Positions 4,801-25,829 of a stretch of DNA of 64,000 nucleotides are shown one piece after another. This DNA is from Schmidtea nova (lineage: Eukaryota). The notes under the pieces are model-generated. The model saw only the letters and a list, made by a program, of their open reading frames with translations, was not told where the DNA came from and made no database searches. Numbering within the stretch: position 1 is the first letter of the stretch; each line of letters opens with the position of its first letter. The stretch is from positions 83,514,001-83,578,000 of the forward strand of contig CM097883.1 in the NCBI GenBank assembly GCA_044892505.1. The letters are read 5' to 3'. The translations under genes and the position numbers were made by a program.

Positions 4801-7800
4801 AATATGAGAAAGGACGAATCTTACGAGGAAATCTAAATTCCATGATAGAACAAATCATCCCACAAATCAAAAAACATAGAAAGGAGTTAATGAGAAGCGA
4901 ATACGAAAGGTTGAAACGATGTATCGAGTGCATACGTGACACAAGTCACACGAGATGGTCACAGATCTCATACGGAAAAGTAGTTGCCAAAATGGGAAAA
5001 GCAATGTTCAGACAAGGGAAAATAACAGATCTAAAAATTTCAGTGGAATTGCCTAATGAGGATACCAAAGAAATTGAAGTGGTAGCAGATTGTACCATAA
5101 AAGAATTAGTAAATGTCATCAACGAGACCCTATTACAAAGAGAACCAGAAGAAGAATGGGAAGATGACATAATCATGAAATACAACGAACATGTATTATG
5201 GGATCACGATGAAAGACGGCTATATAAAATTGGTATATGGGATAATCACCAAACCATCCACGTTATCAGAATGGACGATACACCAAGAGAAACTGCTAAG
5301 GATGAGAAAAGAGAACGGGAACGACAAAAAGAAGTTGTGCATAAATTACAACAAATAGTAGACATTTATCGAAATTGGCGGATTTGGCCAGAATGGGAAG
5401 ATGTATTAGAAGAACTCAATCTCAACAGACGATTACGAACACCTGTAGAAAAACAATGGAACGAACGAGGAAAATGTTGGGAACCAAAAGCAGGCGAATA
5501 CGAAGAGGAATACGGAATAGGAATAGAAGACGATCACAAACCGGAAACCGGAAGAGTCTGTATGGTAACAAGAAAAGCCATGCCAGCAGATTTAGACGGA
5601 CCAGAAACAACAACCATGTGGTTGGAAAGAGAGAAACAAAAAACGGAAGAATTTGTCGAAATATTAAAAACCAATGCGCACGGCAAGAGAAAATTAGTAA
5701 AAGGTCTCGCAGATTTTTTCGTAGTTAACGGAGAAGACATAACCTGCCTGCGTAAAGTAGCAAAAGCAATCGCCGAATACAAAAGAGTTAACGAGTGGTG
5801 TCCAGAACAATTGGATCAAGTAATTAAAAAATGGAGAAACCAAGAATTCTCGCAGGAATCGCCACAGAAAGTACACCTAAGAATAGTATATCCGGACCAG
5901 GAAAAAGAAGAGTTTTGGGTAGGGATAGCGGAGAAAGTTCGAGACATTAAAAAGAAATTGAGATATGAACCACCATTCCATTTACAACACCAAGGACGAT
6001 CATTAGATAACAGCTTAGAAATTGGAATAACGCCAGCGCAATTAGATATCGCAAATACATTGACAGTAGCAGCAATAGCAGGTCAACCATTGAAATTGAA
6101 AGAGGAAAAGAAACCAAAAGGAAGTATGAGTACGCCGAGCCCAATGAAATCGGTAATGACTCCAGGAACAAGCTCAGAACAAGCTAGAACAACACCAAGA
6201 GAGACAAGAGAAAGAACACCACCAGAACCATACGATGTAGACGAAATTTTTACAGATAGCGATGATATGTTAGAGGAGTTAATAGAGCTAACAAAAGAGA
6301 AAGATGATAACATTTTCGAAAGAATCCAAGAATTACCAACAGCAATACCGGTAACCAACACCGAAGATGAAGTCGAACAAGAAATAATCATAGAGGAAGT
6401 AAATGAAATAGCAGAAGAGGAAGCAAGGAGGGCAAATGTAGAAAATGTACAATTCACACAAGAAATGGAAAGATGGTTAGAAGAAAGAGCCAATGAACCA
6501 AGAGACGTCACAGAAGAAACTGGACGAGAAACAAGATTAGTAGAAACGGGCACGACAATGGATAAACGACCTAGAGGTAGACCCAAGATGGATCCAGCAA
6601 ATGTAGTTATAAAATCAAGAGAGGAAAAAAGACGGGATCAATGGGATTTGTGTTTAAAGAAACTAAATAAAATAGCCGAAACGAAAGAAAAAGAAACAAC
6701 ACAAACATACCAAGGCGAAGAATGGATATCAAAGACGTTAATGGAAATACTAGCAATAATCGATCCGGAATTAAAGAAATGGTGGAGAATAAACGAAATA
6801 AGCGAAAGGGCGAAATCACTGCATAGCGCCATCGCACCAATCCTACCAGAACTAATAAAAGAGAAGACAAGGTCAAACCACCTAGATTGGCAAGGAACCA
6901 CGATGTTGATAAAGAAGTTAACGGAAGGAGCAGAGACGGATAACAAATATTTAATAGCTATGGCATACACCATTTACAATCTGCTGACACTGAGTAGAGG
7001 TCGACTGAAACCCACAGCACTTGAAAGACATATAAAGAATACAGCCAAAATTATAGAGAAGGAAATAGAACCGTACATCATCAGTAAAGGAGGATGGGAA
7101 ACATTCACAAAAACGAACCAAAAGAAAAACCAAGCCAAAAATATGAAAAGGAAATTCGAAGAGATATTGGGAGAATTGGAAAAGGAAAAGTCGGGAACAG
7201 GAAACGGGAAATCATCACTAAACTTGAGTTCTATCATTATGATGATGTTAATATGGATGATTAGTACTGACGGAGCAACAGCATTTGAAGTATTCGATTG
7301 TGATCAAATGGCATTAGGTGAGAAATATTCACTACGAGGGACAGAACAATGTAAGGACGCAACCCCAACGGAGCTAAAAACATTAAAAAAGAGACAATTA
7401 TACCACGTATATCAGGAAGCTGAACTGATAAGAACAATGGTCAGAGAATGCAAAGTTTATAAAACCAGATTTGCTTTTTATTGTGGGCACCGCCATTATT
7501 CAGCAATCGTGATGCCAGGAACGGAAAGAGAATCGGTAATGCTGCAAGGAGAAGACTGTGAAAAATTATTCAAACATGGAGAAGTAGAGACTAGAGATAG
7601 AGTAAAGATAAGAGGAAAAACGGGAGTGATATTACAACAAACATATTATGTAGCAGGAGCTATTACGGGAGGAGAAGGGTACTGCCAAGGAGCAACATAT
7701 CCAATATTCGGAGTAGCAGCAACAAACCTAGTGGTAATAGATACCTATACAGTAGAATTAAAAACGTACGAGGCATTCTTCGATCCAACAACGGGAGAAA

Positions 7801-10800
7801 TGAAAACCCTGCCCATGTGCAAAATTGAGTCAAACACTTGCCAAACCGGTATGTCAACCTTAACATACCAGATACGAGGAAAGGAATGTCAACTACAACT
7901 GTTAAAGGAAGCAGAATTCGATGAGATACAAGGGAAAACCTTCCAAGAGGAAGAAGAAGACGAGGCAGCAAGAGGAAAAATACTTCAAGACACCGTACGG
8001 GGAGAGAAAAAGATTGAAACCCGAACACAAGAAAAACAAATTAAAATGAGAAATACACCAACGGTACTAATTACCTCAGATGCAGATATCGGAATGAGGT
8101 TTGTAAAAGGAAAAACAGCCTTGAAATGCGGAGTAGCCATGTTGGAAACCAACTACCCCGGCATTTTTGTATCAAAACAAGAAGTACCTAGTGCGAAACG
8201 CAAAGTACACACGAACGATGTTAAATTACACCTGTACATGAACAATAAAATGGATTTTCTATTCCATAGAGGACAAGCGTCACTACAAAAAGTGTATTAC
8301 GATTTAATTAACAACGATTGCATATTAAATAGGGAAATATTAAAGACAAAATTAGCAGTAGCAATCACAAACCCGGATAGTGCAATGCCATTATTACCAT
8401 TAAGAGAAGGTCATTTTGGAAGGGTAGTCGGAGAGGTCATGTACGTATACATATGTAAAAAGACGAACGCAAAAGTAGCGACAATGACAAAACTACAACC
8501 AAGTCAGTGTACTAACGAACTAGAAATCGAATATAAAGGGAAAGTAAGATATGTGCAACCAGTGACAAGAATCATAAATCCAGTAAGCTTCGAACCAAAC
8601 CCTTTCAATTGCAGCAACGCATATGGACCACTATACCAAAAACCAGACGGGAATTGGGTTATGTTTCCGTCAAGAACAGAGGTACCAGCACCAAGAGAAT
8701 TTGAATTAATGCAACTATCAAAAGGAAGAAAATTTAAAGACGTAGATGTAAGCAATATGGGATTCTATAGTGCAAAGGATTTAGAAGCAGCAAGACAAAA
8801 CATACTATTTCCGGCAAGACGAGAAGCGGTGTTATCCAGTATTGTAACAATAACAGGAGGAACAAATTACCAAGGTGGACCAAATTACGAATTATTATTG
8901 TCACCGGCCCACTTTAAGAAGGCAACGGAAAACATGATGAAAGCGATGTGGGGAAGATTTTTAATATTTGGACAAATGATGGCAGGAATACTTGGTGTTA
9001 TACTAATTATACAAATAATACGGGTAATAATAACGCAAATGTTAGCCTGTTTTGACATCTATAAACGAGAAAAGAAAGTAAATTGGAAATTGGTGGTAGG
9101 ATTCTTACCATTTTTGGCTAAAACAATGGTATTACACGGTCATTCAAAAGATATTCACCGAATAAAGAGACTCCTAAAAATACTGGCAAAAATGAAAGGA
9201 ACCGATGAAGAGGTGGGACGAAAATTTAAAAAGATAATGAATAACGAGCAAGCAAGACAACAACTAAAGAAAGAGAGAAAAGGACTATGGGAAAGAATGA
9301 AAGGGTACAGAACCCAAGACGATTCCAGTGACGACGATGATGATGATAACGAAGGAGGTCAAGTATTTAAAAATCAAGTACCACAGTACGTCGAAAAGAA
9401 TCCAGCGGAAATGTGGAAGTGTTACGCACCCCCACCAACCATGTACCAAGAACCAACACCAGGGATGAGACAAAATACAATGCAAATGATGCCGATGACA
9501 AACATATATCCTATGATACCAGAAGACTATAGAACGAGACGGTGCAGAAGCGTAGATCCGCAAGGAGACTCACATACAATTGCAGTAATGTCATCAAACA
9601 CCGGTCCAGTATTAACTACAACAATCGAGATTAACGGAAGAGAAATTGAAGCGATGATTGATACAGGAGCAAATATCTCAGCAATAGATATAAAATGGAT
9701 ACCACAAGAACAAAGACGGGATATCGAGAGAACCAACGTTCATGTAATAGCATGCAGTAAAGAAGTAGTAGAAGTTGCCGGAAGATGGTGGGTAAAGATA
9801 AAACATCAAAACACAGAAATCGAAACGTACGTAGCAGTAATACCAGCACTAAGCGTACCATGCATTATAGGCACAGATTTAATGCCAGCATTATTTAAAG
9901 AAATAGTTATTGACCTGGGAACAATGAGATTGAAGGATAGGACAGGACAGATATGCGCAATAGAAGCAAAAGTAACAAGTTCGAAACAAATAATCGTACC
10001 AGCACGGAGAGAGAAAATATGTTTCGTAAAAATAGATCCTACAATAGAAGGTGACATGATCTTTGAACCCAGTAAAAGATTTGAAAAGAGAAAGTCGTTG
10101 CCAATGGCAAGAGGATTAGTGAGTGCGAATGACAACGGAGAAATCCCAATAAATGTAGTAAATTTCGATGAAGAGGATAAAATAATTTATGAAAATGAAA
10201 GACTAGGTAAACTAACTCCAATGATAGATATCGAAATACCAATAAAAGAAGGAGTAAAAGAGGAGGAACCCACCTGGAACATTGATAGCCAACTACTAAA
10301 TGAGGATCAAAAGAAACAGCTAGAAAGGTTACTGATGGAATATAAAGACATATTCGCAGCATCCGATTTAGATCTAGGGACATGCGACGTCACACTACAT
10401 ACGATTCCACTAACAGACGAAACGCCTATTGCGTTAAGACCATACAAGTTAGCTGAAGCGCAAAAATCAGTAGCAGAAGCAGAAGTACAGAAAATGCTAG
10501 ACGCAGAAGTAATTGAACCAAGCTGCTCACCGTGGCAATTCCCAGTTGTAATGGTGAAAAAGAAAGACGGAACACAACGGTTTTGTATTGATTATCGGAG
10601 ATTAAATGCGGTAACAAAAAGGGATACATACCCATTACCAGACATCAACGAGATGTTATTGACATTACAAGGAGCGGCATATTTTACATCATTGGATTTG
10701 AAAAGCGGATACTGGCAAATTAAAATGAAGGAGGAAGACAAAGAGAAAACTGCTTTCACTATCGGAAGAGACTTGTACCAATTTAGGAAAATGCCATTTG

Positions 10801-13800
10801 GACTAACCAATGCGCCAGCATCATTTCAAAGATGTATGAATTTCGTTACCCACGGCATAAAACAATGCATGGTTTACATTGACGACCTACTGATCTACTC
10901 AAGCACATTTGAACAACACATCCAAGATATCAGAGATGTATTTGTTAGATTGAGACAATGGAAACTCAAACTCAAACCATCGAAATGCGATTGGGCAAAG
11001 GAGAAAGTGACATTCTTAGGACATATTGTGTCCGCAAAAGGAAAGGAACCAGATCCCAGAAACATTGATAAAGTAAAAGAATGTCCAGTACCAAAGACGA
11101 TAACGCAGATCCAAGAATTTCTCGGATTATGCGGTTACTATAGAAAATTCATAAAGGATTACGCAGGAATTGCAAAACCAATCCAGGAGCTAGTAAAGAA
11201 AGACGTATCGTTCATATGGGGAAGCGAACAACAAACAGCCTTTGAAACATTGAGAGATAAGCTAATAACTGCACCAATATTGGTTCACCCGGACTTCAAA
11301 AAGCCATTTTTACTCGCAACCGACGCAAGTGGATATGCAGCAGGAGCAGTGTTAGGACAATATGATGACGAGGGAAAAGAGCGGGTAATCGGATATTATA
11401 GCAGAACATTCAAAAAACACGAGAAGAATTATTCAGTAACGGAAAGAGAAGCATTGGCAATAATATTAGCAATAAAACACTTTAAATATCTATTATGGGG
11501 ACACATTATATGCATAACCACGGATCATCAACCACTGGTATGGCTAGGACAACATAAGGAAACATCCAGCAGGTTGATGAGATGGGCGATGCAATTACAA
11601 GAATATTCACCAGATATAAAATTCAAATCAGGAAAAGCGAATGCCAACGCAGATTGCATGTCAAGATTAACGTTTCCAGAATTAACAGACCCAGAAGTGC
11701 AAAGAATATGCATAATGATAGCAGAGGATTTGGATTTCAGTGAGTTAAAGAAAGATCAGCAAGAGGATAAAGAACTAAGACCCATCATAGAATTCCTAAG
11801 CTCACGAAATATGGATGTATTCAAAGACAATGCAGAGTTAAAGGAACACATGAGGAAATACCAACATCGATACACAATAGAAAAAGGATGGTTATTAATA
11901 CGAGATGGAGAGAAACGATTAATGTGTCTGCCAGGTAATAGACGAAAAGAGATAATAACTCAATACCATGACGGAAAGTTGGGAGGACACATGTCCGATA
12001 AGAAAACATTAGATCGCATGAGACAAAAATATTATTGGCCAACAATGGACGAAGACGTAAAGGAATGGATAAAGAACTGTTTAACTTGTGCCACAAGAAA
12101 GGACAGTGGGAAGAAATGGAAAAATCCTTTAAAACCCATGCCAATACCAGCGGAACCAATGACTACCATTGCGATGGATGTAATAGGACCATTGCCAGAA
12201 AGTTTAAACGGGAATCAATATATACTGGTAATAACGGATTATTTGACTAAATTCCCTGAAGCATTTGCGATGCCGGATCAAAAAGCAAAGACCGTAGCAA
12301 GAATTTTAGTAGAGGAAATATGTTGTCGATACGGAACCCCGAAACAAATACTAACAGATCAAGGAACAAATTTTATGAGCGAAATATTAGATGAAGTAAC
12401 AAATTACTTCCGGATAGCTAAATTACGAACGTCACCATATCATCCGCAAACCAATGGACAAACGGAAAGATTTAACGGCACATTGATTCGAATGTTATCC
12501 AATTATGTAAGCAAACACCAAACAGATTGGGATGAATACGTAAAGCTATGTCTAATGGCATACAGAATGTCGATACACGCAGCAACAAAATTGAGTCCAT
12601 TTCAATTAATGTATGGAAGGGAATGCAATATGCCAATAGATCTTGAATATCAACCACCTTTGTCTCAATATATGGAGGAAGATGATTACGTCACCAAATT
12701 CAAAGAACGAATGCAAGAGATATGGAAGACAGCAGAACTGAACATAAAGTTTTACCAAGAAAGTTACAAGGACCTACACGATCAAAAGAAAAATGTTAAA
12801 ACAAATGATCTTAAACCAGGAGATTGGGTAATGATAGAAACCCCAGAAATAATACCAGGAACCGTTAAAAAACTACAAAGACCAGGAAAAGGCCCTTACG
12901 AAGTTATATACAAAAAGGAAAACAATGTGAAGGTAAAACTTGTTAATCGACCATTGATACGACCAATATACGTTAATACATGCAGATGTAAAAATGTACC
13001 AAAGACAATAACCACAGCGCCAGAAGAACGAATAATAACCAGATCCCAGACAGCCAGAATGAATATGCTCAGAGCAACCAATGAAAGTACCGAAGCAGAA
13101 AACAATCAACAAGAAAAAAGAAACAAGGAAATTGTACTAAAAGCCAGAGAAATAATGGGAAGATGGCATGTCAGAGACGATATATTAAGGGATATTCAGT
13201 CGATAATTAGTGATTACGCAAGGGGATTACCAACAAAACCAGTCATTTCAGAACTACTGGAAAAAATTCCAGAAATACTTTCACTAGAAGACATAGGAGG
13301 ACAACCAGCATTACATAACGCCATAAAATGGGGAGAAGTAGAGAGAGTAAAAGAATTTCTAAAAATCGCTAAGGAAACAAACCAACACCTTGGTTTTGGG
13401 AATAGCGAACAAGAAACACCATTAATGGTAGCAGCCATCTACAAATCGGATAAAGCAATAATAGACCTTTTGATAAATGCCGATTTCAACTGGACAGAAC
13501 GCGATAGAGAAAACAAAACAGTCTTGAATCACGCAATATGGAGCTCAAATCAGATAATGCTCAAACAAATAATCGAGAAGGCCACTTGGGAAATAGATGA
13601 ACTGATCAAAGGTGATATAATAAAGGAAGCAATAAAAATCGGTAACTGCAAAACAATACGCAAGCTAATAAAATGGAAAAGATCTGAAAATGATACATGG
13701 GTGTTAAATATAAACGAGGTATACAGTGAAGGACAAAACGCGTTATTACAATTCCTATTAAAATTAGTTTGTGATCAGAAAACACTGTTAATATTATTGG

Positions 13801-16800
13801 ACAGAAGAAAGATCACAATTTCCAAAAACAAAGAGGAGTGTAAATTCGAAAGCGAAAAAGAAGCATTATTCAGGAAAATTAGGGAATGGTGTGCAAAATC
13901 GCTAACCAAGTCGATAACTTACAAAGATATATCCAATTTTCAAGATAAGTACAAAACGGTGGAGGAAGAGTATGACAAACTAGTAGACATATTAAACCAC
14001 CCCGAAAAATGCAAACAATTCCTAGGTCGAAAGGAAAGAGAAAGCAAAAGGAAATTTACACCACTTTTCAGCGCAGAGGTACCATATCAAGAAAGGTTAG
14101 ATGCGATACAGGACAAAGCAAAAGAACTATTACCAGAATTCGAGAATTCTAAACATACACTGGAGATACTCGGATCAATTGTGGAAAAGGTACACGCATA
14201 TGCGGAAGGAACTTACAATGAAAACGATATGATGATCATAAAAAGAGAAATGCCAGTGACTTTCTTATTAACAAAAAATGGAGTATTGCCAATACATAGA
14301 GCCTTACGAGCAGGAAAAGATAGGAGGGTAGTCGAAATTGCACGGTTGATGCAAGATTGCGGAAGTGACATGAACATGAAAGATAAAAAGGGAGATACCC
14401 TCATGATATTCGCAGCAAGAGCGAACACAAAAACCCGAGTGTTACAGGAACTGTACGAAGCAGGTGCAGGACTCATGGGAAGAACTAACAAAGACAGCTC
14501 AATACTAGACGTAGCGTTGTTAGCGCACAATTGGGAGGTGATAAATTTCATAAAAACAATCACAAATCAGGAGGAAATAGAATACCTTACAAGGACAGTT
14601 AAAAAAGCTAGCGTACATTCCATGATGCATAACGCTGAACTAACTGAAGCAATACTCAATTGGATGAACCCAAACACCAATGAACCAGCATTCAGGATCA
14701 ACGAGTGCATGGAACAAGGCCAAAATTTGTATATAAAGTGTGCATTAATAATAAACAAATGGCCAAAGATAATAGATATCTTCATGAGAAGAAAAGATTT
14801 ACGATTCACAAACAACCCAAAGGAAACAGAACGTACGGACAAATGGAAAGAACTAATGAAAACGTACCTTAATAATTGGATAAAAGCCAAGAAAGAGATT
14901 CTAGATTGTAAATTAACCGATAAGGAAATACCTAAGCAGGCAGTAACACAAGAATATGAAGCAAGTATACTCACAACCATAACGTATGAAAAAATGATAG
15001 AAGCAATTAATGTCGAGGACGACATTTTCAACGACCAAAGGGGAGGCGACAATACAGGAAACGACGACGATAGTACTCGAGAAAATCCAGAGGATCATGA
15101 GTTATCAGATGAAGAGGACAGTGAAGAGAAAGGAAGGGACACAGAGAAAAATGATAAGAAAAATGAATTTGGGAAACAAAGAAACAACAACTATAAAAAT
15201 AAAAACGAAGCAAAAAGAACAGGCTACAAACAAACAATAAACCCATTCTTTAAACCAGAACTATTATTACTAACGGTAATCATGACCTTAATTAGTCCAA
15301 CTCAAGGGATGATATGTGAAGAAAGAGCGACAATACAAATTGGAAACGCAAAAGGAATCGAACGAGTATGTTGGTCAAAAAAGGACAAAATATCGGGACA
15401 AAATAGTCCAATGGATTGCAGGATCTCAGAATATGAACAAGAAATCATAGAGATCGATGACTTAGAGCTAGATACTTGGTACAAAATATGCACCATCAGA
15501 AAACAAAAGAATCCAAGATCACACAACACAATAGCATGTGCAAACTACCTAACGCCCAAAGTAACCATAACAATACAGCAGTCATCCAAAGGAGACTATG
15601 TTGTAGGAAAGTGTGGAAGAACAGAGACACAAGGAACAAAAAACAAGAAACCTCAGACAATAGACAGACGAACAACGCCAACTATACAAATTACCATAGA
15701 CAGGCCCGAAGTAAGAGTAACCACAAATGAAACCGAAAGAGTGACCTACCAAACAGAATTACTATGTTTAGCACTCATATTAACAATGTTAAAACGGTTA
15801 GAAGAAGGGATAGACATTGACACAATGGCAGTAACAGAGATGAACGACACCCAAAACACCAACCCAAAGTGTTGGGCCAGAAGCAACGAAGAAATTGGCG
15901 TAAGCGAAATAAAGACGAGTCGGAAAAGGAAAACAAATAAAGTAACCAAGATATCAGAAGTAAAAGCAGACAGGACGTATGAACTATGTTTACTAGAAAA
16001 AGAAAGACACAAGAAAGGAACGACAATTTGTAAAACATTTCAACCTGGGGAAACAATAAAGTTCATAAGAAGAAGAAGAAGAAATATACGCACCAAACGG
16101 AGGACAACTACAATGTTAGAGTTAACCGGAATAGAACCGGACGTCAAAGGCGTATGCTGGAAGAAGCAGGAAAAGAAAACAAACCAGAATACACCGCCGC
16201 AATGTCGAACAAACAGAGGAACAACCACAATACAGATAGAAGGGTTAGAAAGTAATCAAACGTACGAAATATGCCTGATTAGGAAAAGCGACAAAATAAC
16301 AGTAAATGAATTGGAATGCAAATTATATAAAACACCCACCAGAACAAGAGTTGGAAAGACAACGCGAAAAAGTAGAAGACAACGGAACAAAGGAAAAGCG
16401 AGGTATACCACTACCTTTAAACCTAATGGACAACAGAAAAACCAAGAAATACAAAGAAAAACCGAAAAGAATACTACAACAACTCTTATACTATGGAGAA
16501 TAGACAATAAAACGTTAGAAATATGTTGGGCAGTAGTTCAGGAACAAAAAGAAAGACAGCCACGATACTGCGAAAACGTAAAAGGAAAAGAAGAAATGAG
16601 TATCAAAAATCTGAAATTTAATAGAGAATACGAGATATGTGCGGTAGAAAAGACGGACATATTAGGAAATCAGCAGGAAAGATGCGAAACGTACTACACA
16701 CCGGTAAACTCAACGTCCAAAGGGAAAGTGAGAAAACTCGAATTTAAAGAATTAAGTCAGACAACGAAACAAATGGACGCGGAACAAGTAGTAATAGACC

Positions 16801-17201
16801 CTTACGCAAGATGGACGCCAGAAGAAGTAATTAAAGAAGTTAAAAGAAAACAACAAGAACGAGAACAATTACTAAATAAACTAAAGGGACAATACGGACC
16901 AATGATTAACCAGAGTGAAATTACGAAGATGGACGTAAACAAACAAGTTAGAGAACTAATTGGTCTAGGAATACTAGCAGCAACTATTCCAGTAATAACA
17001 GTATTATTAATAATATGGATATATGATGTATTCAACAAGAAACCAATAACACATTGGCCAGATATAAAGATTATGAACTACAGTATAGAATTACCGGAAG
17101 AAGTACAGAAAGAATTCCAAAGGAGGACGAAAGGTAAAGAATTTTGGAGACAAATAGAAGATGAAGAGCGATACGAAGGAAAGACAGTGATGGTGATATA
17201 G
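1818..17201 (+). CDS. 5127-aa Gag-accessory-Env-Pol-accessory polyprotein
   Basis: Uninterrupted ORF (open from 1785, TTG at 1818, first in-frame ATG at 2244). Contains CCHC x3, DTGA protease, YIDD RT, RNase H (TDAS...EALA...TDH), HHCC/DDE/GPY integrase and extra domains. Confidence 0.97.
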   Translation: MRKGEKSVIIKPAEKNKATKNNNQKGLKGSKARQIIIQKSIIENDKLSVTSNSSSNKENQAEPERNPISEIEVDKTNNDYIEEIEDEVEQETESDDTDNDSKASDNESAKETEIDRNSSDEPNSELETRGNESKITTDSGIEMSEPREEIKDKFSGEPFNGDASKLETFLKEFGIFVEVCKWKPETTVSRIQLYLKDSALDLYLEAKNGTNPPTSWSAIKDFFQQTFGINKVLNEAFTEFSMRKQKINESNAVYASELKKLAKLIFNQDSPINEELMAAIFVGGLRRPDIRAQVGCQGCKTIDQALETANRFELHMIGNDGRIYLAMDTAQNEQEVNLNNHIPNSQQLNRPPPQRRNEGNKVSNFGNQSNYNPQGPTKQCKTCGKLGHWQQECYQNLNCGKCGVKGHSESRCYTITCFNCGRPGHLSRNCGQRSNQRGNWQNTGNRQNYGNQPTGGNRQNYGNQPNNGNQPEYGNQPNSNNNNQNKNTTKEIHLMQEVQRLTELINNTTRGNPQTGQQQINMMRKIESENERLNRESQARHAQEWARVQREEEQKQQERERQPLRINMMRATNQANTHEKETVPEINPTNLNPTNNESRKEIVPGSEETEIEKEVETEANQEEKRMIWKKGMMVILPNGHMFRFQYNIKEEVGTLFNKVNEMAPGVTKLPREAFLKIEGAPEVKLKLTDTWENMGVVETKRNVMVIKEMEPEGIPSPVRHETRISRIFKGKMIRRRLGEIDELERKMRKVEVVDDKSESTQKAIKSETRPTENTPSEINQIKHINMLRGQAKNFSDDEEDSDVSSLAGDMLNEPEIEDKKIEVVKTPETIQVKEDEIQKLLDNALEVIYNEEFIDKKHYRKFMRAILQMNYKEWLPGREVETLSQYVGKLLKEPLHEYIILIEIKTCLPRIWIKTPLTEDIYQWVEDRLGSSYKNKFLYSQNGLVKKRTHLIETGIWPGEVTTLSICDDKREENLQEVAKEANTCFEKKIKPRLEYEKGRILRGNLNSMIEQIIPQIKKHRKELMRSEYERLKRCIECIRDTSHTRWSQISYGKVVAKMGKAMFRQGKITDLKISVELPNEDTKEIEVVADCTIKELVNVINETLLQREPEEEWEDDIIMKYNEHVLWDHDERRLYKIGIWDNHQTIHVIRMDDTPRETAKDEKRERERQKEVVHKLQQIVDIYRNWRIWPEWEDVLEELNLNRRLRTPVEKQWNERGKCWEPKAGEYEEEYGIGIEDDHKPETGRVCMVTRKAMPADLDGPETTTMWLEREKQKTEEFVEILKTNAHGKRKLVKGLADFFVVNGEDITCLRKVAKAIAEYKRVNEWCPEQLDQVIKKWRNQEFSQESPQKVHLRIVYPDQEKEEFWVGIAEKVRDIKKKLRYEPPFHLQHQGRSLDNSLEIGITPAQLDIANTLTVAAIAGQPLKLKEEKKPKGSMSTPSPMKSVMTPGTSSEQARTTPRETRERTPPEPYDVDEIFTDSDDMLEELIELTKEKDDNIFERIQELPTAIPVTNTEDEVEQEIIIEEVNEIAEEEARRANVENVQFTQEMERWLEERANEPRDVTEETGRETRLVETGTTMDKRPRGRPKMDPANVVIKSREEKRRDQWDLCLKKLNKIAETKEKETTQTYQGEEWISKTLMEILAIIDPELKKWWRINEISERAKSLHSAIAPILPELIKEKTRSNHLDWQGTTMLIKKLTEGAETDNKYLIAMAYTIYNLLTLSRGRLKPTALERHIKNTAKIIEKEIEPYIISKGGWETFTKTNQKKNQAKNMKRKFEEILGELEKEKSGTGNGKSSLNLSSIIMMMLIWMISTDGATAFEVFDCDQMALGEKYSLRGTEQCKDATPTELKTLKKRQLYHVYQEAELIRTMVRECKVYKTRFAFYCGHRHYSAIVMPGTERESVMLQGEDCEKLFKHGEVETRDRVKIRGKTGVILQQTYYVAGAITGGEGYCQGATYPIFGVAATNLVVIDTYTVELKTYEAFFDPTTGEMKTLPMCKIESNTCQTGMSTLTYQIRGKECQLQLLKEAEFDEIQGKTFQEEEEDEAARGKILQDTVRGEKKIETRTQEKQIKMRNTPTVLITSDADIGMRFVKGKTALKCGVAMLETNYPGIFVSKQEVPSAKRKVHTNDVKLHLYMNNKMDFLFHRGQASLQKVYYDLINNDCILNREILKTKLAVAITNPDSAMPLLPLREGHFGRVVGEVMYVYICKKTNAKVATMTKLQPSQCTNELEIEYKGKVRYVQPVTRIINPVSFEPNPFNCSNAYGPLYQKPDGNWVMFPSRTEVPAPREFELMQLSKGRKFKDVDVSNMGFYSAKDLEAARQNILFPARREAVLSSIVTITGGTNYQGGPNYELLLSPAHFKKATENMMKAMWGRFLIFGQMMAGILGVILIIQIIRVIITQMLACFDIYKREKKVNWKLVVGFLPFLAKTMVLHGHSKDIHRIKRLLKILAKMKGTDEEVGRKFKKIMNNEQARQQLKKERKGLWERMKGYRTQDDSSDDDDDDNEGGQVFKNQVPQYVEKNPAEMWKCYAPPPTMYQEPTPGMRQNTMQMMPMTNIYPMIPEDYRTRRCRSVDPQGDSHTIAVMSSNTGPVLTTTIEINGREIEAMIDTGANISAIDIKWIPQEQRRDIERTNVHVIACSKEVVEVAGRWWVKIKHQNTEIETYVAVIPALSVPCIIGTDLMPALFKEIVIDLGTMRLKDRTGQICAIEAKVTSSKQIIVPARREKICFVKIDPTIEGDMIFEPSKRFEKRKSLPMARGLVSANDNGEIPINVVNFDEEDKIIYENERLGKLTPMIDIEIPIKEGVKEEEPTWNIDSQLLNEDQKKQLERLLMEYKDIFAASDLDLGTCDVTLHTIPLTDETPIALRPYKLAEAQKSVAEAEVQKMLDAEVIEPSCSPWQFPVVMVKKKDGTQRFCIDYRRLNAVTKRDTYPLPDINEMLLTLQGAAYFTSLDLKSGYWQIKMKEEDKEKTAFTIGRDLYQFRKMPFGLTNAPASFQRCMNFVTHGIKQCMVYIDDLLIYSSTFEQHIQDIRDVFVRLRQWKLKLKPSKCDWAKEKVTFLGHIVSAKGKEPDPRNIDKVKECPVPKTITQIQEFLGLCGYYRKFIKDYAGIAKPIQELVKKDVSFIWGSEQQTAFETLRDKLITAPILVHPDFKKPFLLATDASGYAAGAVLGQYDDEGKERVIGYYSRTFKKHEKNYSVTEREALAIILAIKHFKYLLWGHIICITTDHQPLVWLGQHKETSSRLMRWAMQLQEYSPDIKFKSGKANANADCMSRLTFPELTDPEVQRICIMIAEDLDFSELKKDQQEDKELRPIIEFLSSRNMDVFKDNAELKEHMRKYQHRYTIEKGWLLIRDGEKRLMCLPGNRRKEIITQYHDGKLGGHMSDKKTLDRMRQKYYWPTMDEDVKEWIKNCLTCATRKDSGKKWKNPLKPMPIPAEPMTTIAMDVIGPLPESLNGNQYILVITDYLTKFPEAFAMPDQKAKTVARILVEEICCRYGTPKQILTDQGTNFMSEILDEVTNYFRIAKLRTSPYHPQTNGQTERFNGTLIRMLSNYVSKHQTDWDEYVKLCLMAYRMSIHAATKLSPFQLMYGRECNMPIDLEYQPPLSQYMEEDDYVTKFKERMQEIWKTAELNIKFYQESYKDLHDQKKNVKTNDLKPGDWVMIETPEIIPGTVKKLQRPGKGPYEVIYKKENNVKVKLVNRPLIRPIYVNTCRCKNVPKTITTAPEERIITRSQTARMNMLRATNESTEAENNQQEKRNKEIVLKAREIMGRWHVRDDILRDIQSIISDYARGLPTKPVISELLEKIPEILSLEDIGGQPALHNAIKWGEVERVKEFLKIAKETNQHLGFGNSEQETPLMVAAIYKSDKAIIDLLINADFNWTERDRENKTVLNHAIWSSNQIMLKQIIEKATWEIDELIKGDIIKEAIKIGNCKTIRKLIKWKRSENDTWVLNINEVYSEGQNALLQFLLKLVCDQKTLLILLDRRKITISKNKEECKFESEKEALFRKIREWCAKSLTKSITYKDISNFQDKYKTVEEEYDKLVDILNHPEKCKQFLGRKERESKRKFTPLFSAEVPYQERLDAIQDKAKELLPEFENSKHTLEILGSIVEKVHAYAEGTYNENDMMIIKREMPVTFLLTKNGVLPIHRALRAGKDRRVVEIARLMQDCGSDMNMKDKKGDTLMIFAARANTKTRVLQELYEAGAGLMGRTNKDSSILDVALLAHNWEVINFIKTITNQEEIEYLTRTVKKASVHSMMHNAELTEAILNWMNPNTNEPAFRINECMEQGQNLYIKCALIINKWPKIIDIFMRRKDLRFTNNPKETERTDKWKELMKTYLNNWIKAKKEILDCKLTDKEIPKQAVTQEYEASILTTITYEKMIEAINVEDDIFNDQRGGDNTGNDDDSTRENPEDHELSDEEDSEEKGRDTEKNDKKNEFGKQRNNNYKNKNEAKRTGYKQTINPFFKPELLLLTVIMTLISPTQGMICEERATIQIGNAKGIERVCWSKKDKISGQNSPMDCRISEYEQEIIEIDDLELDTWYKICTIRKQKNPRSHNTIACANYLTPKVTITIQQSSKGDYVVGKCGRTETQGTKNKKPQTIDRRTTPTIQITIDRPEVRVTTNETERVTYQTELLCLALILTMLKRLEEGIDIDTMAVTEMNDTQNTNPKCWARSNEEIGVSEIKTSRKRKTNKVTKISEVKADRTYELCLLEKERHKKGTTICKTFQPGETIKFIRRRRRNIRTKRRTTTMLELTGIEPDVKGVCWKKQEKKTNQNTPPQCRTNRGTTTIQIEGLESNQTYEICLIRKSDKITVNELECKLYKTPTRTRVGKTTRKSRRQRNKGKARYTTTFKPNGQQKNQEIQRKTEKNTTTTLILWRIDNKTLEICWAVVQEQKERQPRYCENVKGKEEMSIKNLKFNREYEICAVEKTDILGNQQERCETYYTPVNSTSKGKVRKLEFKELSQTTKQMDAEQVVIDPYARWTPEEVIKEVKRKQQEREQLLNKLKGQYGPMINQSEITKMDVNKQVRELIGLGILAATIPVITVLLIIWIYDVFNKKPITHWPDIKIMNYSIELPEEVQKEFQRRTKGKEFWRQIEDEERYEGKTVMVI
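2244..3110 (+). other. gag: Gag capsid plus three CX2CX4HX4C zinc knuckles (2955-3107)
   Basis: FSGEPFNGDASKLETFLKEF...; CKTCGKLGHWQQEC, CGKCGVKGHSESRC, CFNCGRPGHLSRNC. Confidence 0.93.
3711..6070 (+). other. Three putative ubiquitin-like domains (about 3711-3930, 5031-5275, 5868-6070) in the Gag-Env spacer
   Basis: LKISVELPNEDTKEIEVVADCTIKELVNVINE...IIMKYNEHVLWD..RRLYKIGIWDNHQTIHVIR and KVHLRIVYPDQEKEEFWVGIAEKVRDIKKKL...LQHQGRSLD follow the beta-grasp ubiquitin pattern; the first copy is weaker. Confidence 0.6.
6564..6587 (+). other. AT-hook motif
   Basis: KRPRGRPK. Confidence 0.7.
6720..7110 (+). other. Bcl-2-like domain inside the polyprotein
   Basis: Helical domain ending IEPYIISKGGWETF (BH2-like, cf. 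WIQDNGGWDAF), with a BH1-position segment DNKYLIAMAYTIY upstream. Confidence 0.72.
7221..9135 (+). other. env: Envelope glycoprotein, chuvirus-like / class III (gB-type), with internal signal peptide and C-terminal TM
   Basis: Signal LSSIIMMMLIWMISTDGATA|FEVFDC; CKVYKTRFAFYCGHRHYSAIV; LYMNNKMDF; DCILNREILK; GEVMYVYIC; CTNEL; GFYSAKDLEAARQNILFP; TM WGRFLIFGQMMAGILGVILIIQII. These match chuviral glycoprotein motifs as recalled. Confidence 0.82.
9600..9930 (+). other. Retropepsin aspartic protease
   Basis: IEAMIDTGANISAID...CIIGTDLM. Confidence 0.95.
10430..11660 (+). other. pol: Reverse transcriptase and RNase H (Ty3/gypsy type)
   Basis: RFCIDYRRLN, YPLP, LDLKSGYWQI, MPFGLTNAPASFQ, YIDDLL, FLGH, ATDASG, YSVTEREALA, TDHQPL. 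Confidence 0.98.
11950..13000 (+). other. Integrase (HHCC, DDE, GPY/F)
   Basis: HDGKLGGH...CLTC; MDVIG; TDQGTNF; NGQTERFN; KGPYEV. Confidence 0.97.
13290..14560 (+). other. Two clusters of ankyrin-like repeats after the integrase
   Basis: GGQPALHNAIKWG, QETPLMVAAIY, NKTVLNHAIWS, NGVLPIHRAL, KGDTLMIFAA, DSSILDVALL. Confidence 0.85.
15255..17201 (+). other. C-terminal type I membrane protein: signal peptide, 4 FN3-like repeats, TM (16956-17024), cytoplasmic tail
   Basis: PELLLLTVIMTLISPTQG|MIC; four units of CW...I..L....YEIC...C (e.g. IEGLESNQTYEICL); TM LIGLGILAATIPVITVLLIIWIY. Confidence 0.7.
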
Positions 17202-17326
17202 GAGGCGGGATATGACTGTAAATAATAGTGTAAATAACAATGCATTACCGTAATAGTATGGGTATCGATATTATAAAAATATAAAAAGAGAAATCGAGAA
17301 AACGATTAATGTATATAATTTAGAAA

Positions 17327-17683
17327 ATGAACGAACAGGAAGAAATAGCAGAAACTACTATGGCTATGCGATGGAAAGCCCAGTGTGACATGTTAATACG
17401 AACAATCAACTCACTACAAAATCAGTTAATTGAGAAACAGAATTTGTTATCCGAAAGTTATAATAATAGTTTTGAACAACTCCACAGAATCGAGGAGCAA
17501 CAGAGATTGATAACGCAACTTACCAGAGAGAATCAAGTGATGAGCGACATAAATCAGAGACAAGCAATAGAGATAGACCGTTTAACAATGGGAGAGACAG
17601 AAGAAGCAGAGGATGGATGGACAAATTGGGCAATAAACAGATCAGAAAATGACCCAGAACCAGATTCAACAAACGAGCCGTAG
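17327..17683 (+). CDS. Accessory ORF A, 118 aa coiled-coil protein of unknown function
   Basis: ATG-initiated, heptad-rich, same codon bias as the polyprotein, inside the element. Confidence 0.7.
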   Translation: MNEQEEIAETTMAMRWKAQCDMLIRTINSLQNQLIEKQNLLSESYNNSFEQLHRIEEQQRLITQLTRENQVMSDINQRQAIEIDRLTMGETEEAEDGWTNWAINRSENDPEPDSTNEP

Positions 17684-17774
17684 ATAAATAAAGCGAAAAA
17701 TTGTAAATATGTAAAAACAAAAACAAGAAAAATCAAAAAATAGATAACAAATCAAGTGTATATATCATTGTAGA

Positions 17775-19157
17775 ATGAATACAGAAGGAAAAGCCGAAGA
17801 GCGGATAATCGAAATTTTGAGAGCCGAGAACAGGAAATGGAGTCAGAGACTCACTTGTGTAAATTGTAAAAACATAATATTGAAACCAAGACAAACCCTA
17901 TGCGGATGCAGAGTATGTACCAAATGCATACACGAGTTAAGTATGAAAAGACCACCAGAATGTCCAGAATGCAAAGAAGGACAAATAAAATTCGAAGAAA
18001 CCGGACCAGATAGAGCAACTCAGAGAGAAATCATGAACACGAAAACCGAATGTATAAATCAATCATGTATATGGCAAGGACAAATACGCGATCTCGAGAA
18101 CCATCTGGAGAACTGCGAAGAGAAGAGAACTGAATGTAACAAATGCCAACAAAAAATAACTATAAAGAATAAAGAGCAGCACAAAGATGAATGTAAAGAA
18201 GAGGAAAGTCTATGCGAATATTGTGGAACTCGAGAAACGAGGAGAAAGATCGAAGAAGAACACCTGAATGTAAAAGAGGAGAAAGTATGTAGACAATATG
18301 TAGGAATATGTTCAAACGAATGCGAGATAACGGTAGAAGTAAAATTACAAGAACATTGGAAAGTGTGCACGGAGAAACCAAGGGAATGTCCTTATAACAA
18401 ACAGGGATGTATGGAGAAAAGAACGCAAAAAACCATGAAACAACATCTGGAGGAAGCATTGCTAAAGCATGCGGAAATGACAAACGAAGCAACAAAAGAA
18501 ACCGAACAAACAATCAAAAAATTAGAAAGAGAAATAGAGTCACACAAGATAATGGTAAACCTACTGTTGGAAACCAGAGAGCAATTCGAACTAACACGAG
18601 AAAAGATGGAGGAAAAGATAAAAGCTATCGAAGAACTGGCTAAAGGAATGAAAATCCAGTACAACAAACTCACCCAGGATACCGAGGAAAAGTTACCAAT
18701 CGCACCCTATGTGTGGAAAGTGACAGATTTTAGAAACAAATTAACAGAGGCCAGAAATATGACGAAAACAGCAGTAATAAGCCCACCATTTTATTTATGG
18801 AGAAACGGAGCTAAAGTGAGATTGAAGCTATACCCAAATGGAGACGGAAGAGGACGAGGAACACATGTGTCAATATTTTTCTCGCTATGTAAAGGAGAAT
18901 ACGACGACCTAGTAGAATGGCCCTTGAAAGTAGGAGTCATTGTAAGAATCAGAAGTGTAACAAAACCAGTAGAAAAATTCTTTGAGACAGAGAAACATGC
19001 GAGTACGAGCGAGAAACCAACCACAGAATGTGGATTAGCAGCGAGAGAACCGATGTTTATAACGAAAGAAAGCCTATGGGAACGATTATATGCAGACACC
19101 CTATACATAGAAATGGAAAGGAATGAGAAAGCGGATAGAAAAGGATGGTTGACGTAA
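17775..19157 (+). CDS. TRAF homolog (RING, TRAF zinc fingers, coiled coil, MATH), intronless, element-borne
   Basis: RING CVNC...CGCRVC..C...CPEC; TRAF Zn fingers; MATH VWKVTDF...SPPFY...LYPNGDGRGRGTHVSIFFSLCKGEYDDLVEWP. Confidence 0.93.
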   Translation: MNTEGKAEERIIEILRAENRKWSQRLTCVNCKNIILKPRQTLCGCRVCTKCIHELSMKRPPECPECKEGQIKFEETGPDRATQREIMNTKTECINQSCIWQGQIRDLENHLENCEEKRTECNKCQQKITIKNKEQHKDECKEEESLCEYCGTRETRRKIEEEHLNVKEEKVCRQYVGICSNECEITVEVKLQEHWKVCTEKPRECPYNKQGCMEKRTQKTMKQHLEEALLKHAEMTNEATKETEQTIKKLEREIESHKIMVNLLLETREQFELTREKMEEKIKAIEELAKGMKIQYNKLTQDTEEKLPIAPYVWKVTDFRNKLTEARNMTKTAVISPPFYLWRNGAKVRLKLYPNGDGRGRGTHVSIFFSLCKGEYDDLVEWPLKVGVIVRIRSVTKPVEKFFETEKHASTSEKPTTECGLAAREPMFITKESLWERLYADTLYIEMERNEKADRKGWLT

Positions 19158-21192: not shown

Positions 21193-22524
21193 TGTTGGGC
21201 CAGCCAAATAGAGGGAACAGTGAAATAAAAGTAGATTAATTAAAACAAAAAAGAGAAAAATAAGGTAAAAAGGGGAATATTTATTTATTAAAAGAAAGGA
21301 ATAATATAGTAAAAATATAGAATAACTAAGTACAAGCTATAAATAAAAATAAATGAATTTATAGATATTAACGGGCCCAGGAGACATCTAAAAACAAATA
21401 AAATACAAATAATAATAATTAAAACCAAATAAAAGTACTTGTTATTGAATAATTGTTTTTGAAACCCGGACCTCCAAGGAAGAATACAATCTAAAAAATA
21501 AAAATTAATTAGAATCAAAAACAATAATTAAAAACCACCATGAAACTGGCCAAACCTGATTGGTCAGTCTAGACACGACTGATCAGTATAAATACTGATC
21601 AGATTTTTCATAAAATCAGACTTTGGTAGACTAGACGTTTGACTAGAGTGAGACTTTAGTAGACTTTGTTAGACTGAAATTTAGACTTTAACTAAAAATT
21701 CGCATTAGATTGCACATTGCCCCGACGACGATCACCGTTTAGACCGATTTTGATCAATAAATTTTCAGAATTCAATTGAGGTATTTTTGGTACATTATTT
21801 GATGTTGTATTCATATGTCATTATCATATTATAATATATTATTCATCTCATTATGATTTACGTTATATTTAAACTATTTAAACTATCATATTAATCTCGC
21901 GCCGTTGGGAGCTTTAGGTTCCCAAGGTGTTCGTCCGTGGCGTGGTGCTCGAGGGCTCCACACACGGTAAAGTAATAAATAACAAAGCATAATTTTATTA
22001 GTGATGGTGGAGATTTGCACATGGGACACCCAACAAATCCGGGGAATTATTTTCCGATCATTTTAGCTACAGAGGGGACGAAAATTTTTTGATAACGCTT
22101 AAAGATATGAAAGAATTTTTTTTTTAACCGTGAGGAGGCACAAATTGTTCACCCTCCCCAGAGCACAATGGCTAGATAAACGTCTAATAAACCTTAGAAA
22201 AATTAGGTCGACCGCATTTGGTACAAAAGAGCGTTTTTCGAATAAGCTAGGGATACATGACGGGAGAGAGCTTCCGTTTTGAGGTATCAATATTTTGAAA
22301 ATCCAAGCAGACAAATCACCATTTTTTCGTCTATAATATTGATCGTAAACAGATAAAGCTAAGTAGATACGAGAGTAATGTATACGTAACGAACGACAGT
22401 TTCTCTTGATTTCAGCTAAGGGGTAGGCAAATAATAAAGATATCACGATGAGAGATAACATTTACTATGATTAATTATTGATGTAAATTGTAACTATTAT
22501 AAAATTCAGCATCGTTTTGGAATC

Positions 22525-23001
22525 ATGACTAAGCATAGATACACTATCAAAAAACGACAAGAACGAGCCCGAGTTAGCCCATTAAAGCCGGCTCCTTTCG
22601 AGATTTTACAGCAAATCCATCAAAAGATGTGGGCATGGCGCCGAGAGCTCGAAACCGCCTGTCCATTTACAGTATGGGACCATCCACGGCACCACGTCTG
22701 GTACCGGGGATGCGCTAGTTGGCCAATCATTCCAGATGAGGAATTCGAATCATGGCACGCCGCCTGGTTCATCATGATGTTGGACAAAGGAGGATTCCCG
22801 AAATGTGTGATTTATTGGGGGTTCATTCCAGCCTCTACCTTCAAGGAATTGGGGTTCAAGTTCAATACAGCCATACGACCCCTTCGAGAAGCTGAGAGAA
22901 TCCGCTTCCAGCAAGCCTCCTCCAATAGCACGGGAATCCACACAAATTTGCAAATTAAATCGATATTTTCGTATCGGGGAAAAACGACCGGAGATGGATA
23001 A
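22525..23001 (+). CDS. LTR-embedded ORF 1, 158 aa Trp-rich protein of unknown function
   Basis: ATG-initiated, GC-richer than flanks, open for 158 codons in AT-rich context. Confidence 0.55.
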   Translation: MTKHRYTIKKRQERARVSPLKPAPFEILQQIHQKMWAWRRELETACPFTVWDHPRHHVWYRGCASWPIIPDEEFESWHAAWFIMMLDKGGFPKCVIYWGFIPASTFKELGFKFNTAIRPLREAERIRFQQASSNSTGIHTNLQIKSIFSYRGKTTGDG

Positions 23002-23319
23002 TTGAATAAATGGCCACCTATTTTTGAATTTAATAAATGTTTTAAAGAAGTCTGAAGTGTCTCATTTTGTTAATAGTGTTGTCATGTAGATTTAGTATTG
23101 TAGTTGTTATAGTCATTAGGAAATTCATTTATTAATACAAAATTAGTTTAATAAATCTTTTGAGTCTTCAATGGTTAGATAGTTAAATACTTCTGTAAAG
23201 AACTCGATAATTAAAAACATTAGTATACATCTCGTTTAATAATAATAAAGAGTAGACTAAATAAAATAACATTGTTGATAGGTCCTCCAGCGAATTTATC
23301 GTTATAATATTCAGACAAC

Positions 23320-23904
23320 ATGCCGACTACAGAAAATTCCAAGAAAATCATGGGACAAATCCAAGAAAGGAAGTTGAGGGACCAGCAGCGACAGATCAAG
23401 CGACTCACGGTCGCCAATGATGAATTGAGAGCGAAGTGGTTCTCACCCGGACAAATGAAGGACCAGTCGAAAAAACTTGAGCGAGTGCAGGAAGCACTGG
23501 CCACAACCAAATTGGAACTAGATGCCGTCCAGCGAGAACTCCGAAATTGCCTGAACGCAGTAACAAGAAGTTACATCGACTCCGAATTGCGAGCGCTAAT
23601 CCGGCCGATCACGGCTCAGCGCTGGATACAATGCACTCACCAAGATGTCGCTTGCGGGACAGAAGATGATATCATCATGGCACCCACTCTTACAACGGAA
23701 GATTTGCCTATTTTTCTCAGTGATCCCCCGAGAATAATAGCGTCAGCACCGGTCATAAACCAACAGCTTCGAAAACATCGAATGGGATCGCGACAGCGCC
23801 GTCGTCGCCGAGAATTTGCAAAGCGCCTGGATGAACGAATCTACCACCTGAACTCCTTAACCGAAGCAGAGTTAATCCAGGAGATTAGCCTGGAGTTTGA
23901 ATAG
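23320..23904 (+). CDS. LTR-embedded ORF 2, 194 aa coiled coil plus Arg-rich motif
   Basis: ATG after TTCAG-ACAAC; RQRRRRREFAKR near the C-terminus; AATAAA-rich signal downstream (~23996). Confidence 0.62.
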   Translation: MPTTENSKKIMGQIQERKLRDQQRQIKRLTVANDELRAKWFSPGQMKDQSKKLERVQEALATTKLELDAVQRELRNCLNAVTRSYIDSELRALIRPITAQRWIQCTHQDVACGTEDDIIMAPTLTTEDLPIFLSDPPRIIASAPVINQQLRKHRMGSRQRRRRREFAKRLDERIYHLNSLTEAELIQEISLEFE

Positions 23905-25829
23905 GAAAACCTCAATGTAAAATAACAACCTGTCTTTATTATTTTAATAAAAGTATTACTGTGTAAAATTTTTCTCTCATCGTGTGAATTCACTAAATAA
24001 AATAAAATAACAATAGCTAAATCCTAGAAGTAAAAAATCGCAGCCGCATTTTTCTCAAACCGACCGTTTCTACGCAGGAGCTGATTAATTACCTTGTAGA
24101 TCAGTTAAGGACAGTGAAATTGAGGAAAAGCGTGTGATAGATCATAAGGATGTGTAGTATAAAATTCAGTAGGAAGCGAACATCCATAGAATGTAAATGC
24201 GTAAGACCTTCTATCGGCAGCAAGGACCCGAGGGAAGATAAATGGGGAGTAGTTTTGGCAACAAAGCTCACCTGCCCATCATTTTTCCACCACCGTATGC
24301 AGTACCAACTTGGCTAGTAGGGAATAGTCAAGGGCATACGCGTGTAGTAGTCATGTTATGTATGGTTATGGGCGTGGAATCCCTAGTATACGTACTCATC
24401 AATAGTCGTTCAATTAATGATTAACTATTTATTTGAATTACTTAAAACCCACCCATAATCCCAACAATATATTCAACTCAAAAAATAGAATAGTCTCCGT
24501 TCTTTGCCCTTTTGAACTTTTTAGTTTTATTGTTACGGTCCGTAACAAGTAACTAAATTTAATTTTAAATCGTTTTAAAATCATTGTGGAATAATATTTT
24601 TCATTCGTTAGATGGCGAAACAGTACTTAATTTATACAAGTTAAATGTAAAATCAGAACAAGCAGTGGCAAATTTAACAATTAATTCTTTTCATCCATTT
24701 ATTAATGTAAATCATTGTTTTCTTCAATGAACTTTATTAAGTCAGACATGATAATAGATTAAAAGGTGGGAGTAGTGCTGTTTGTATCCTGCTAAAGCGA
24801 CCAGTTAGACAGGTATGATACTTTATTATTTTCTTATGTAGTCTTTTCATGTTTCAAGTAAAAACAAATTATAACAAAACTGTTGATTCAAGTTATTTTA
24901 TAATGTTGGGTTATTAATGAGTAGTCGATGGTACCTGACTCCTGTGTTCTCTTTTTATCACTACAAGAAATCAGACCCAACACCATAAATTTTATTTTTG
25001 ATTCAATACAATACTGCTAATCACAGAAAGTTACAATTGTTCTACAATCTGCGATAGGGTAGAACACCCAATGGGATATCTCCCTTTCTGATACGCAGGA
25101 ATTGATGGATCGATACTTTATAACTTTTAATTACCGTTTCCGTTGCCTTTTCTATGTTCCAATCACTCGCTCGACTCTTCGAGATTTTCTTCGACAAACT
25201 GGCTTCGACCAACTGGATTCGACCAACTGGCGAGTACGGCAATTTTGACTTAACTTTTATAGTGATTTTTCGATTGGTCCTGTCACGTCTTAATGTATCA
25301 GTCAATTGGTAAATTAACTGGAAGCTGCTGCTAAGTGAATTTTCCCGGGACCTTCTGTAATTAATCAAATTATTAATAAATTTATTGATGTCCCGAGTTT
25401 CCCACGTAGCTCGGGTTTCATATTAGGCAATTAATTATTTTAATTAATTTGTATTTTCTTAATATTTCTTTCTTTGGGTCCCTTTTTAATTGTATACACG
25501 CATATTTGAACTCGTCTCATCATTTGGCATCCTCCCATACCAGTTTCCCCTTCTCAATATTTATTTTGAATTTTTATAAATTTTTAATTAATGTTTGCAT
25601 ATTGATCATTATTTTTCCTATTTTCGTATTTTTATCTATTTGCACATAGTTTTTGTGCTTTTTGTGCTTTTTAACTTTTTATTTCAGCCTATTCAGGCAA
25701 CCCTAAAAAATAAAATCAAATAAATAATTCATGGCACGTCAGCTAGTAAATAAGTAATTTTTGGCACGCGCACTCAAAAAGGTTTGCCACCACTCGTCTA
25801 GATATTATAATATTTTATTAATTATGTAT

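Follow-up and report, generated by a model that had tools for sequence, protein, structure and literature searches.

The closest described systems are the Burro/GYPSM1 elements of planarians, which exceed 25 kb, have long LTRs and encode a ~5,000-aa polyprotein with Gag, Ubl, Bcl-2-like, Env, Pol and ankyrin parts (PMC6431247). In the section of that paper on these elements, Env is in frame between Gag and protease, and one member is described as having MATH/TRAF on an ORF of its own; neither a C-terminal signal peptide nor FN3 repeats nor a second membrane protein is named there for Burro, and the words 'fibronectin', 'FN3' and 'cytokine' are absent from the text of the paper. BURRO1 RNA goes up on piwi knockdown (PMC8532177, in part). 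The GAG-ENV-POL errantiviruses of flatworms, nematodes and bryozoans combine a gypsy Pol with a gB-type Env in the same order, have many intact copies and are described, in the accessible sections of a 2026 survey, with one Env only; these sections mention neither 'fibronectin', 'FN3' nor Burro (PMC13524379). Entry by gB-carrying errantiviruses is unexplained there, because herpes gB needs gD and gH/gL (PMC13524379). Atlas virus, a BEL/Pao element with a single Gag-Pol-Env polyprotein, has two predicted glycoproteins, for attachment and fusion, and its attachment protein GN is more variable than its fusogen GC; the two are adjacent, in one phlebovirus-like Env with a class II fusogen (PMC9094657, in part).

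The window analysed here is a 64,000-nucleotide stretch of Schmidtea nova DNA (contig CM097883.1, positions 83,514,001 to 83,578,000, forward strand). It carries a retroelement with 3.27-kb LTRs that are 99.7% identical, TG...CA ends and a 4-bp ATAT target-site duplication, which together mark it as a young element of ~28.4 kb; its 5' LTR lies just outside the window on the upstream side (L058:6074-9349). By Pfam, its long ORF (Table 1) encodes in order Gag with CCHC knuckles, Ubl and Bcl-2-like domains (weak matches, E 0.053 and 0.15), Env, PR-RT-RH-IN, ankyrin repeats and a C-terminal membrane protein. Env matches PF24664, a Monjiviricetes-type fusion glycoprotein, at E 7e-72. Assigned by architecture (LTR-bounded, >25 kb, a single Gag-(Ubl, Bcl-2)-Env-PR-RT-RH-IN-Ank polyprotein in which Ubl and Bcl-2 are weak), the element is a giant Burro-type gypsy of gag-env-pol order with a predicted gB/chuvirus-type fusogen (PMC6431247); named Burro1-4/GYPSM1 sequences were not among the matches to its Env-to-integrase part. 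The in-frame Env is shared with Burro/GYPSM1, and the gypsy Pol, gB-type Env, gene order and many intact copies with the errantiviruses, from which, as described, the element differs in having a predicted second membrane protein. A search of the host genome (G000) with the C-terminal 648 aa gave 3,110 candidates; among the 68 that were scored, identity is 94-100%, and all but five are stop-free in this segment (63 of 68).

Table 1. Features of the element in the window (positions are those of the window)
Feature	Position	Strand	Details
Single ORF, 5,138 aa	1785..17201	+	stop to stop; first Met 2244
First membrane protein	7230..9065	+	signal peptide ~7230; putative gB/chuvirus-type fusogen; TM 8976-9032; PF24664
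Protease, RT, RNase H, integrase	9618..12446	+	gypsy order; Pfam
Strongest ankyrin-repeat stretch	13311..13580	+	cytosolic, before second signal peptide; Ank_2 E 1e-15
Internal signal peptide	15255..15308	+	predicted cleavage after Thr-Gln-Gly by -3/-1 rule
Repeat 1, FN3-like	15309..15566	+	two Cys pairs; Fn3_ELFN E 0.27, weak
Linker, possibly degenerate partial fifth repeat	15567..15752	+	fn3_5 E 0.089
11-residue hydrophobic stretch	15753..15791	+	hydropathy
Repeat 2, most diverged	15804..16064	+	second Cys pair only
Repeat 3	16068..16349	+	polybasic start, RTKR 16089-16100; fn3 E 0.14
Repeat 4, FN3-like	16434..16715	+	two Cys pairs
Stalk	16716..16958	+	partly helical in low-confidence full model
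Transmembrane helix	16959..17015	+	KD19 2.65
Cytosolic tail, 58 aa	17025..17201	+	WPDI 17055-17066; no PxP
Separate TRAF-like ORF inside element	17748..19157	+	RING-like, zf-TRAF, coiled coil, MATH E 1e-19
3' LTR	21193..24466	+	TG...CA ends

Further features accompany the polyprotein. The TRAF-like ORF is complete and directly 3' of it. Between the 5' LTR and gag, a 154-aa ORF (window 3-164; L060:7679-8143) ends in a C3HC4 RING (zf-C3HC4_3, E 5e-13), which we take to be IAP-like, and the 5' leader before gag holds tandem arrays of 30-55 nt repeats (586-1285). A third membrane-protein ORF, of 193 aa with one strong TM (KD19 3.16), precedes the 3' LTR (20406-20987) and gave no clear match in Pfam. 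More ORFs of the coding strand occupy 17324-17683 and 19248-20333 and, inside the LTR, 22471-23001 (frameshifted in the 5' LTR copy) and 23308-23904. An I-N-M-M/L-R-like motif recurs at domain borders (polyprotein residues 503, 531, 577, 795 and 3759), marking candidate protease cleavage sites. Elsewhere the window holds an env-less gypsy pol fragment (32731-34767), whose ORF is 1,001 aa long in intact copies, and, at 44884-46098, a 404-aa innexin ORF with no introns (E 4e-47).

The C-terminal protein (residues 4491-5138, 15255-17201) is in frame with the long ORF and is laid out as a signal peptide, four related repeats of disulfide type, a stalk, a TM helix and a tail. By hydropathy, a short segment (residue 4493, 15261), one of 11 residues (4659, 15759) and a full TM (5059-5077) stood out; the ATGs from 15000 to the hydrophobic core of the signal peptide are out of frame. 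All six pairs of repeats beat shuffled sequences (0, 0, 1, 0, 10 and 0 of 2000 reach the score), and seven columns (C, W, I, Y, C, K, C) are invariant in all four. Seven Cys pairs are in register (4529/4545 and 4569/4585; 4735/4749; 4791/4807 and 4830/4845; 4914/4929 and 4952/4967). Repeat 2 deviates most, V replacing L and E-L-C replacing x-I-C, with a single Cys pair. The linker resembles repeats 1 and 3 (score reached by 2 and 5 of 1000 shuffles); its similarity to repeats 2 and 4 was not significant by shuffling. Seven sequons lie in the ectodomain, or 1.28 per 100 aa; the Gag part has 0.78, Pol-Ank 0.36 and Env 0.18. This density is soft evidence, since Env has the lowest value. The sequence-only reading had described a signal peptide, an extra hydrophobic stretch, an RTKR site, a TM and a tail motif, all of which were found in their places by hydropathy and in the sequence, and its four repeats proved real. 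Hydropathy, Cys pairs and sequons agree with the predicted type I membrane layout.

The full 648-aa protein gave a poor single-sequence model (pLDDT 39), and structural matches to it were used only as a hint. For repeat 3, an alignment in which 12 rows taken from five further copies joined the four repeats yielded a model with six strands at pLDDT 77 and pTM 0.63, the first strand lacking definition; RTKR falls in the low-confidence start of this model. By title, the PDB rows listed by Foldseek for repeat 3 were FN3 domains or FN3-derived binders, the best at E 5.5e-3, with none of those listed reaching E 0.001. VIA-align against 48,161 chains placed FN3-containing structures (by title) in 49 of the 50 best rows, with Z 8.3-7.0 and fibronectin, sDscam and LAR in the lead; the rmsd was ~2.3-4.3 Å over 64-81 residues, one ensemble row standing at 10.4, and the top row had Z 8.3 and 3.5 Å over 81 residues. 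Values of Z 7-8 are middling, so the support for the fold comes from the uniform FN3 list. Profile searches added hints below cut-off (fn3 E 0.14, Fn3_ELFN E 0.27, tenascin E 0.87), and the Atlas neighbours of the whole C-terminal protein, taken as a lead only, were FN3 single-pass proteins (FNDC5/4/9 at 0.85-0.87). BFVD returned weak rows only, one of which was walleye retrovirus Env (E 0.047); this likeness was dropped, the row being weak and an FN3 domain in that Env not having been found in the literature. The description of the repeats as FN3-like is thus borne out by the model of repeat 3, for which a predicted FN3-type beta-sandwich is supported; repeats 1, 2 and 4 would be FN3-like through homology to repeat 3 rather than through good models of their own. 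An FN3-type sandwich, a TM and a short tail are shared with cellular FN3 single-pass proteins (FNDC4/5/9, gp130/Domeless and ELFN-type LRR-FN3 proteins), but the window protein has no significant sequence match to them and lacks both WSxWS and the PxP of Box1. LRR-FN3 domains have an F-G strand Cys pair, comparable to those of the window repeats.

No homolog of the C-terminal protein was found by word search of proteins of 356-1134 and 2825-8992 aa, by phmmer against 1.84 billion representatives or in metagenome contigs, and alignment of Env to metagenome contigs gave no locus. A search with the Env-to-integrase part returned 30 long proteins, 10 with PF24664, nine of which have Env before Pol. 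Eight of these nine database polyproteins end, after integrase, in a signal-like segment, an ectodomain of 106-388 aa, a TM and a tail; P0004 has no terminal membrane protein, and the TM of P0009 is weak. Three other env families of the host genome (ORFs of 3,401, 3,393 and 3,232 aa) end likewise, the signal segment of the 3,393-aa family being under threshold and the TM of the 3,232-aa family broken by arginines. Counting the window, these three families and the nine database polyproteins, a signal peptide, ectodomain and TM follow integrase in 12 of 13 env-in-frame polyproteins, versus 0 of 10 env-less loci; P0026, with Env after Pol, and the 20 matches without PF24664 stand outside the count. 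The env-less control consisted of multi-copy pol loci of the host genome, from about six families, picked by ORF length (one split, one truncated), and in these ten loci neither an Env match nor a hydrophobic segment after integrase was found. In an RT tree of 12 rows, without P0013 and P0026 and with the window row on a long branch, the env-in-frame elements group as a single clade (95/97), so co-occurrence of this slot with Env amounts to one evolutionary event.

Motifs of the FN3 type, L-x-x-x-T-x-Y, are present in several relatives. A profile of them scored 23.8 against host FN3 domains, with 100 column shuffles at 13.4 or less (23 columns anchored on the motif), and 16.4 against the window repeats versus 14.3 for shuffles, a narrow difference over 23 columns chosen by the same motif. 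The relatives' repeat profile did not find the window repeats, nor the window profile theirs. Likewise, the window profile did not match the C-terminal protein of the 3,401-aa family, which is unalignable to that of the window and has the same Atlas neighbours (FNDC5 0.88). The ectodomains of different families may thus not share descent with that of the window, and independent captures are possible.

Other variations were seen among the relatives. P0004, P0007, P0008, P0009 and P0010 have three aspartic-protease-like domains, one of them after integrase. Two other env families are followed by an ORF that looks, by eye, like a DEDD exonuclease (L051:5486-6937 and L053:5451-6446); Pfam was blank for that of L051. 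The pol-env protein P0026 carries a chromodomain, and a protease-like end and a further hydrophobic segment follow its Env TM.

The window copy was compared with 19 other copies chosen as best protein matches, a choice that biases pN/pS down. The C-terminal segment gave 0.26 (84 synonymous and 84 non-synonymous variants in 648 codons), Env 0.05, RT-RH 0.06, IN 0.07 and the ankyrin/acidic end region 0.29; stalk and TM are the most constrained part of the C-terminal protein, at 0.12. Between families, identity was 92/86/49% for RT-RH, 85/76/36% for Env and 56%/~21%/undetectable for the C-terminal protein. We conclude that the C-terminal segment is under purifying selection and diverges far faster than Env or RT. 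Since the ankyrin region has a similar pN/pS, this rate is not diagnostic.

The reading that we favour, with about an even chance, is that the polyprotein ends in a second virion glycoprotein for attachment, a candidate partner of the class III fusogen. This option appears to gain support because the slot is family-wide in env-carrying relatives and absent from env-less elements. The ribosome, at the ER already for Env, would re-enter the translocon at the internal signal peptide, and signal peptidase would cut the ectodomain loose from Pol-ankyrin. The second hydrophobic stretch, as a duplicated signal remnant, would go into the lumen and the C-terminal TM would anchor the protein in type I orientation. 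Packaged with Env in budding particles, it would attach to a receptor on the surface of the host cell and thereby let the gB-type Env fuse; such binding would evolve fast, and its role would compare with that of gD for herpes gB or of GN for GC. Taken jointly, co-translational insertion, signal-peptidase release, anchoring in type I orientation and a receptor-binding role beside Env in the particle seem to us evenly poised between right and wrong. Some points speak against attachment: P0004 lacks the protein, arginines interrupt the TM of the 3,232-aa family, only repeat 3 folded well, and the element appears to carry many host-modulating cargoes. Moreover, some class III fusogens, such as rhabdovirus G and GP64, attach without a partner. 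Attachment and fusion proteins within one polyprotein are likewise proposed for Atlas virus (PMC9094657, in part), unlike which the window element has its class III fusogen and FN3-repeat protein on opposite sides of Pol. The broader picture, to which we give slightly less than even credence, is that Burro-type elements may be endogenous viruses with a two-component entry machine flanking Pol, in which a conserved class III fusogen is joined by an FN3 surface protein, captured and rapidly exchanged, by which the cells to be entered are chosen.

As the main rival reading, it is possible, if rather unlikely, that the same type I FN3 protein acts on the host side instead, whether as a decoy for adhesion or for ligands, as a shield from immunity or as a block to superinfection, perhaps with partial shedding by furin at RTKR. 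The cargo of the element (TRAF, IAP-type RING, Bcl-2-like, Ubl, ankyrin) fits such a role, as do the pN/pS shared with the ankyrin region and FNDC5 and FNDC4 among the Atlas look-alikes. Other cargoes, however, come and go or shift between families (ankyrin is found in one of the nine database proteins only, and there before Pol), whereas the terminal membrane protein is kept in 12 of 13. RTKR is retained in 19/19 other copies, which fits shedding, but an R-x-K/R-R site occurs in the ectodomain of only one of 11 relatives.

The type I layout had come with the caveat that the extra hydrophobic stretch could change the topology. Were it to stop transfer, only repeat 1 would be luminal, repeats 2-4 would be cytosolic and the last TM would be inverted. 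Its hydropathy (KD11 2.98, followed by Lys-Arg) and its hydrophobic character in 19/19 copies are what such a segment would show. It is only 11 residues long, however, and on a rough scale its 19-residue insertion score (+2.9) is the worst of five segments, compared with -2.4 for the TM. It also aligns gap-free with the signal peptide, a score reached by 3 of 10,000 shuffles (for a pair picked by eye), and lies 38 residues before the conserved CW of repeat 2, much as the signal peptide lies 37 before that of repeat 1. Repeats 2-4 have paired Cys and sequons, and most relatives have two strong segments only, which argues further against stop-transfer, a reading that we regard as improbable. Likely the leftover of a duplicated signal peptide, the stretch stands where repeat 2 begins. 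In the simplest reading, repeat 1 and its signal peptide were duplicated as a unit and the leftover is carried into the lumen. The caveat is thereby largely answered by the register with the signal peptide; what stays of it is the hydrophobicity conserved in the 19 copies read.

The sequence-only reading had also raised a cytokine-receptor decoy with a tail lacking the PxP of Box1. The tail is indeed without PxP over its 58 aa, the motif by which Box1 of gp130-type receptors is defined; the Box1 comparison itself rests on the gp130 motif given in that reading. A captured gp130/Domeless-type receptor that acts as a dominant-negative decoy, with a Box1-like tail that binds JAK or holds it in the wrong place, would agree with tandem FN3 repeats, a TM and W-P-x-I ~13 residues below it. 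This motif was selected after the fact and is uncommon: in the cytosolic polyprotein, W-P-x-[VI] occurs in 17 and [WFY]-P-x-[VIL] in 68 of 3,760 20-aa windows. Clusters of IL-11R and IL-27R were among the lower Atlas rows, and gp130 D4-6 ranked 15th in VIA-align (Z 7.5), but tied with fibronectin, Dscam, LAR, NCAM and tenascin. WSxWS is absent from the window protein and from 11 relatives, and a W-P-x-I-type motif from the tails of the same number (0/11). Profiles of STAT_bind, STAT_int, FERM_F1 and FERM_F2 had no match in the host genome, in a search with no positive control for them, in which the fn3 profile does match. With WSxWS and PxP absent, gp130 tied with other FN3 proteins and the tail motif missing from the relatives, the decoy idea is weak, and we hold it to be quite unlikely. 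That the segment is a recently captured host fragment, a passive passenger without function, is very improbable: it would agree with the lack of a homolog in any protein library searched, but pN/pS is 0.26, 63 of 68 copies have no internal stop and the slot is kept across families.

In the literature searched, a second membrane protein of these elements was not found described; the original Burro paper, the Repbase entry, figures and most supplements fall outside this scope and may mark TM segments. The accessible parts of PMC11410931, PMC4795655, bioRxiv 10.1101/2021.11.05.467493 and PMC8532177 have nothing on the C-terminal protein. The giant Burro-type architecture was already known; new is the signal peptide, ectodomain and TM after integrase in 12 of 13 env-in-frame polyproteins. 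If the host-side role holds instead, the protein would still be a surface cargo not described before, in an element family that is very abundant and was recently active. From the layout, the polyprotein of this reverse-transcribing element would resemble those of alphaviruses or flaviviruses and would pass through the ER membrane both before and after Pol. Nearly all env-in-frame elements examined have a candidate gB partner at the same place, which makes the question of errantivirus entry testable. If the pairing of attachment protein and fusogen is real, a retroelement would divide labour between the two as herpesviruses do, and the way in which gB-carrying errantiviruses attach would be explained.
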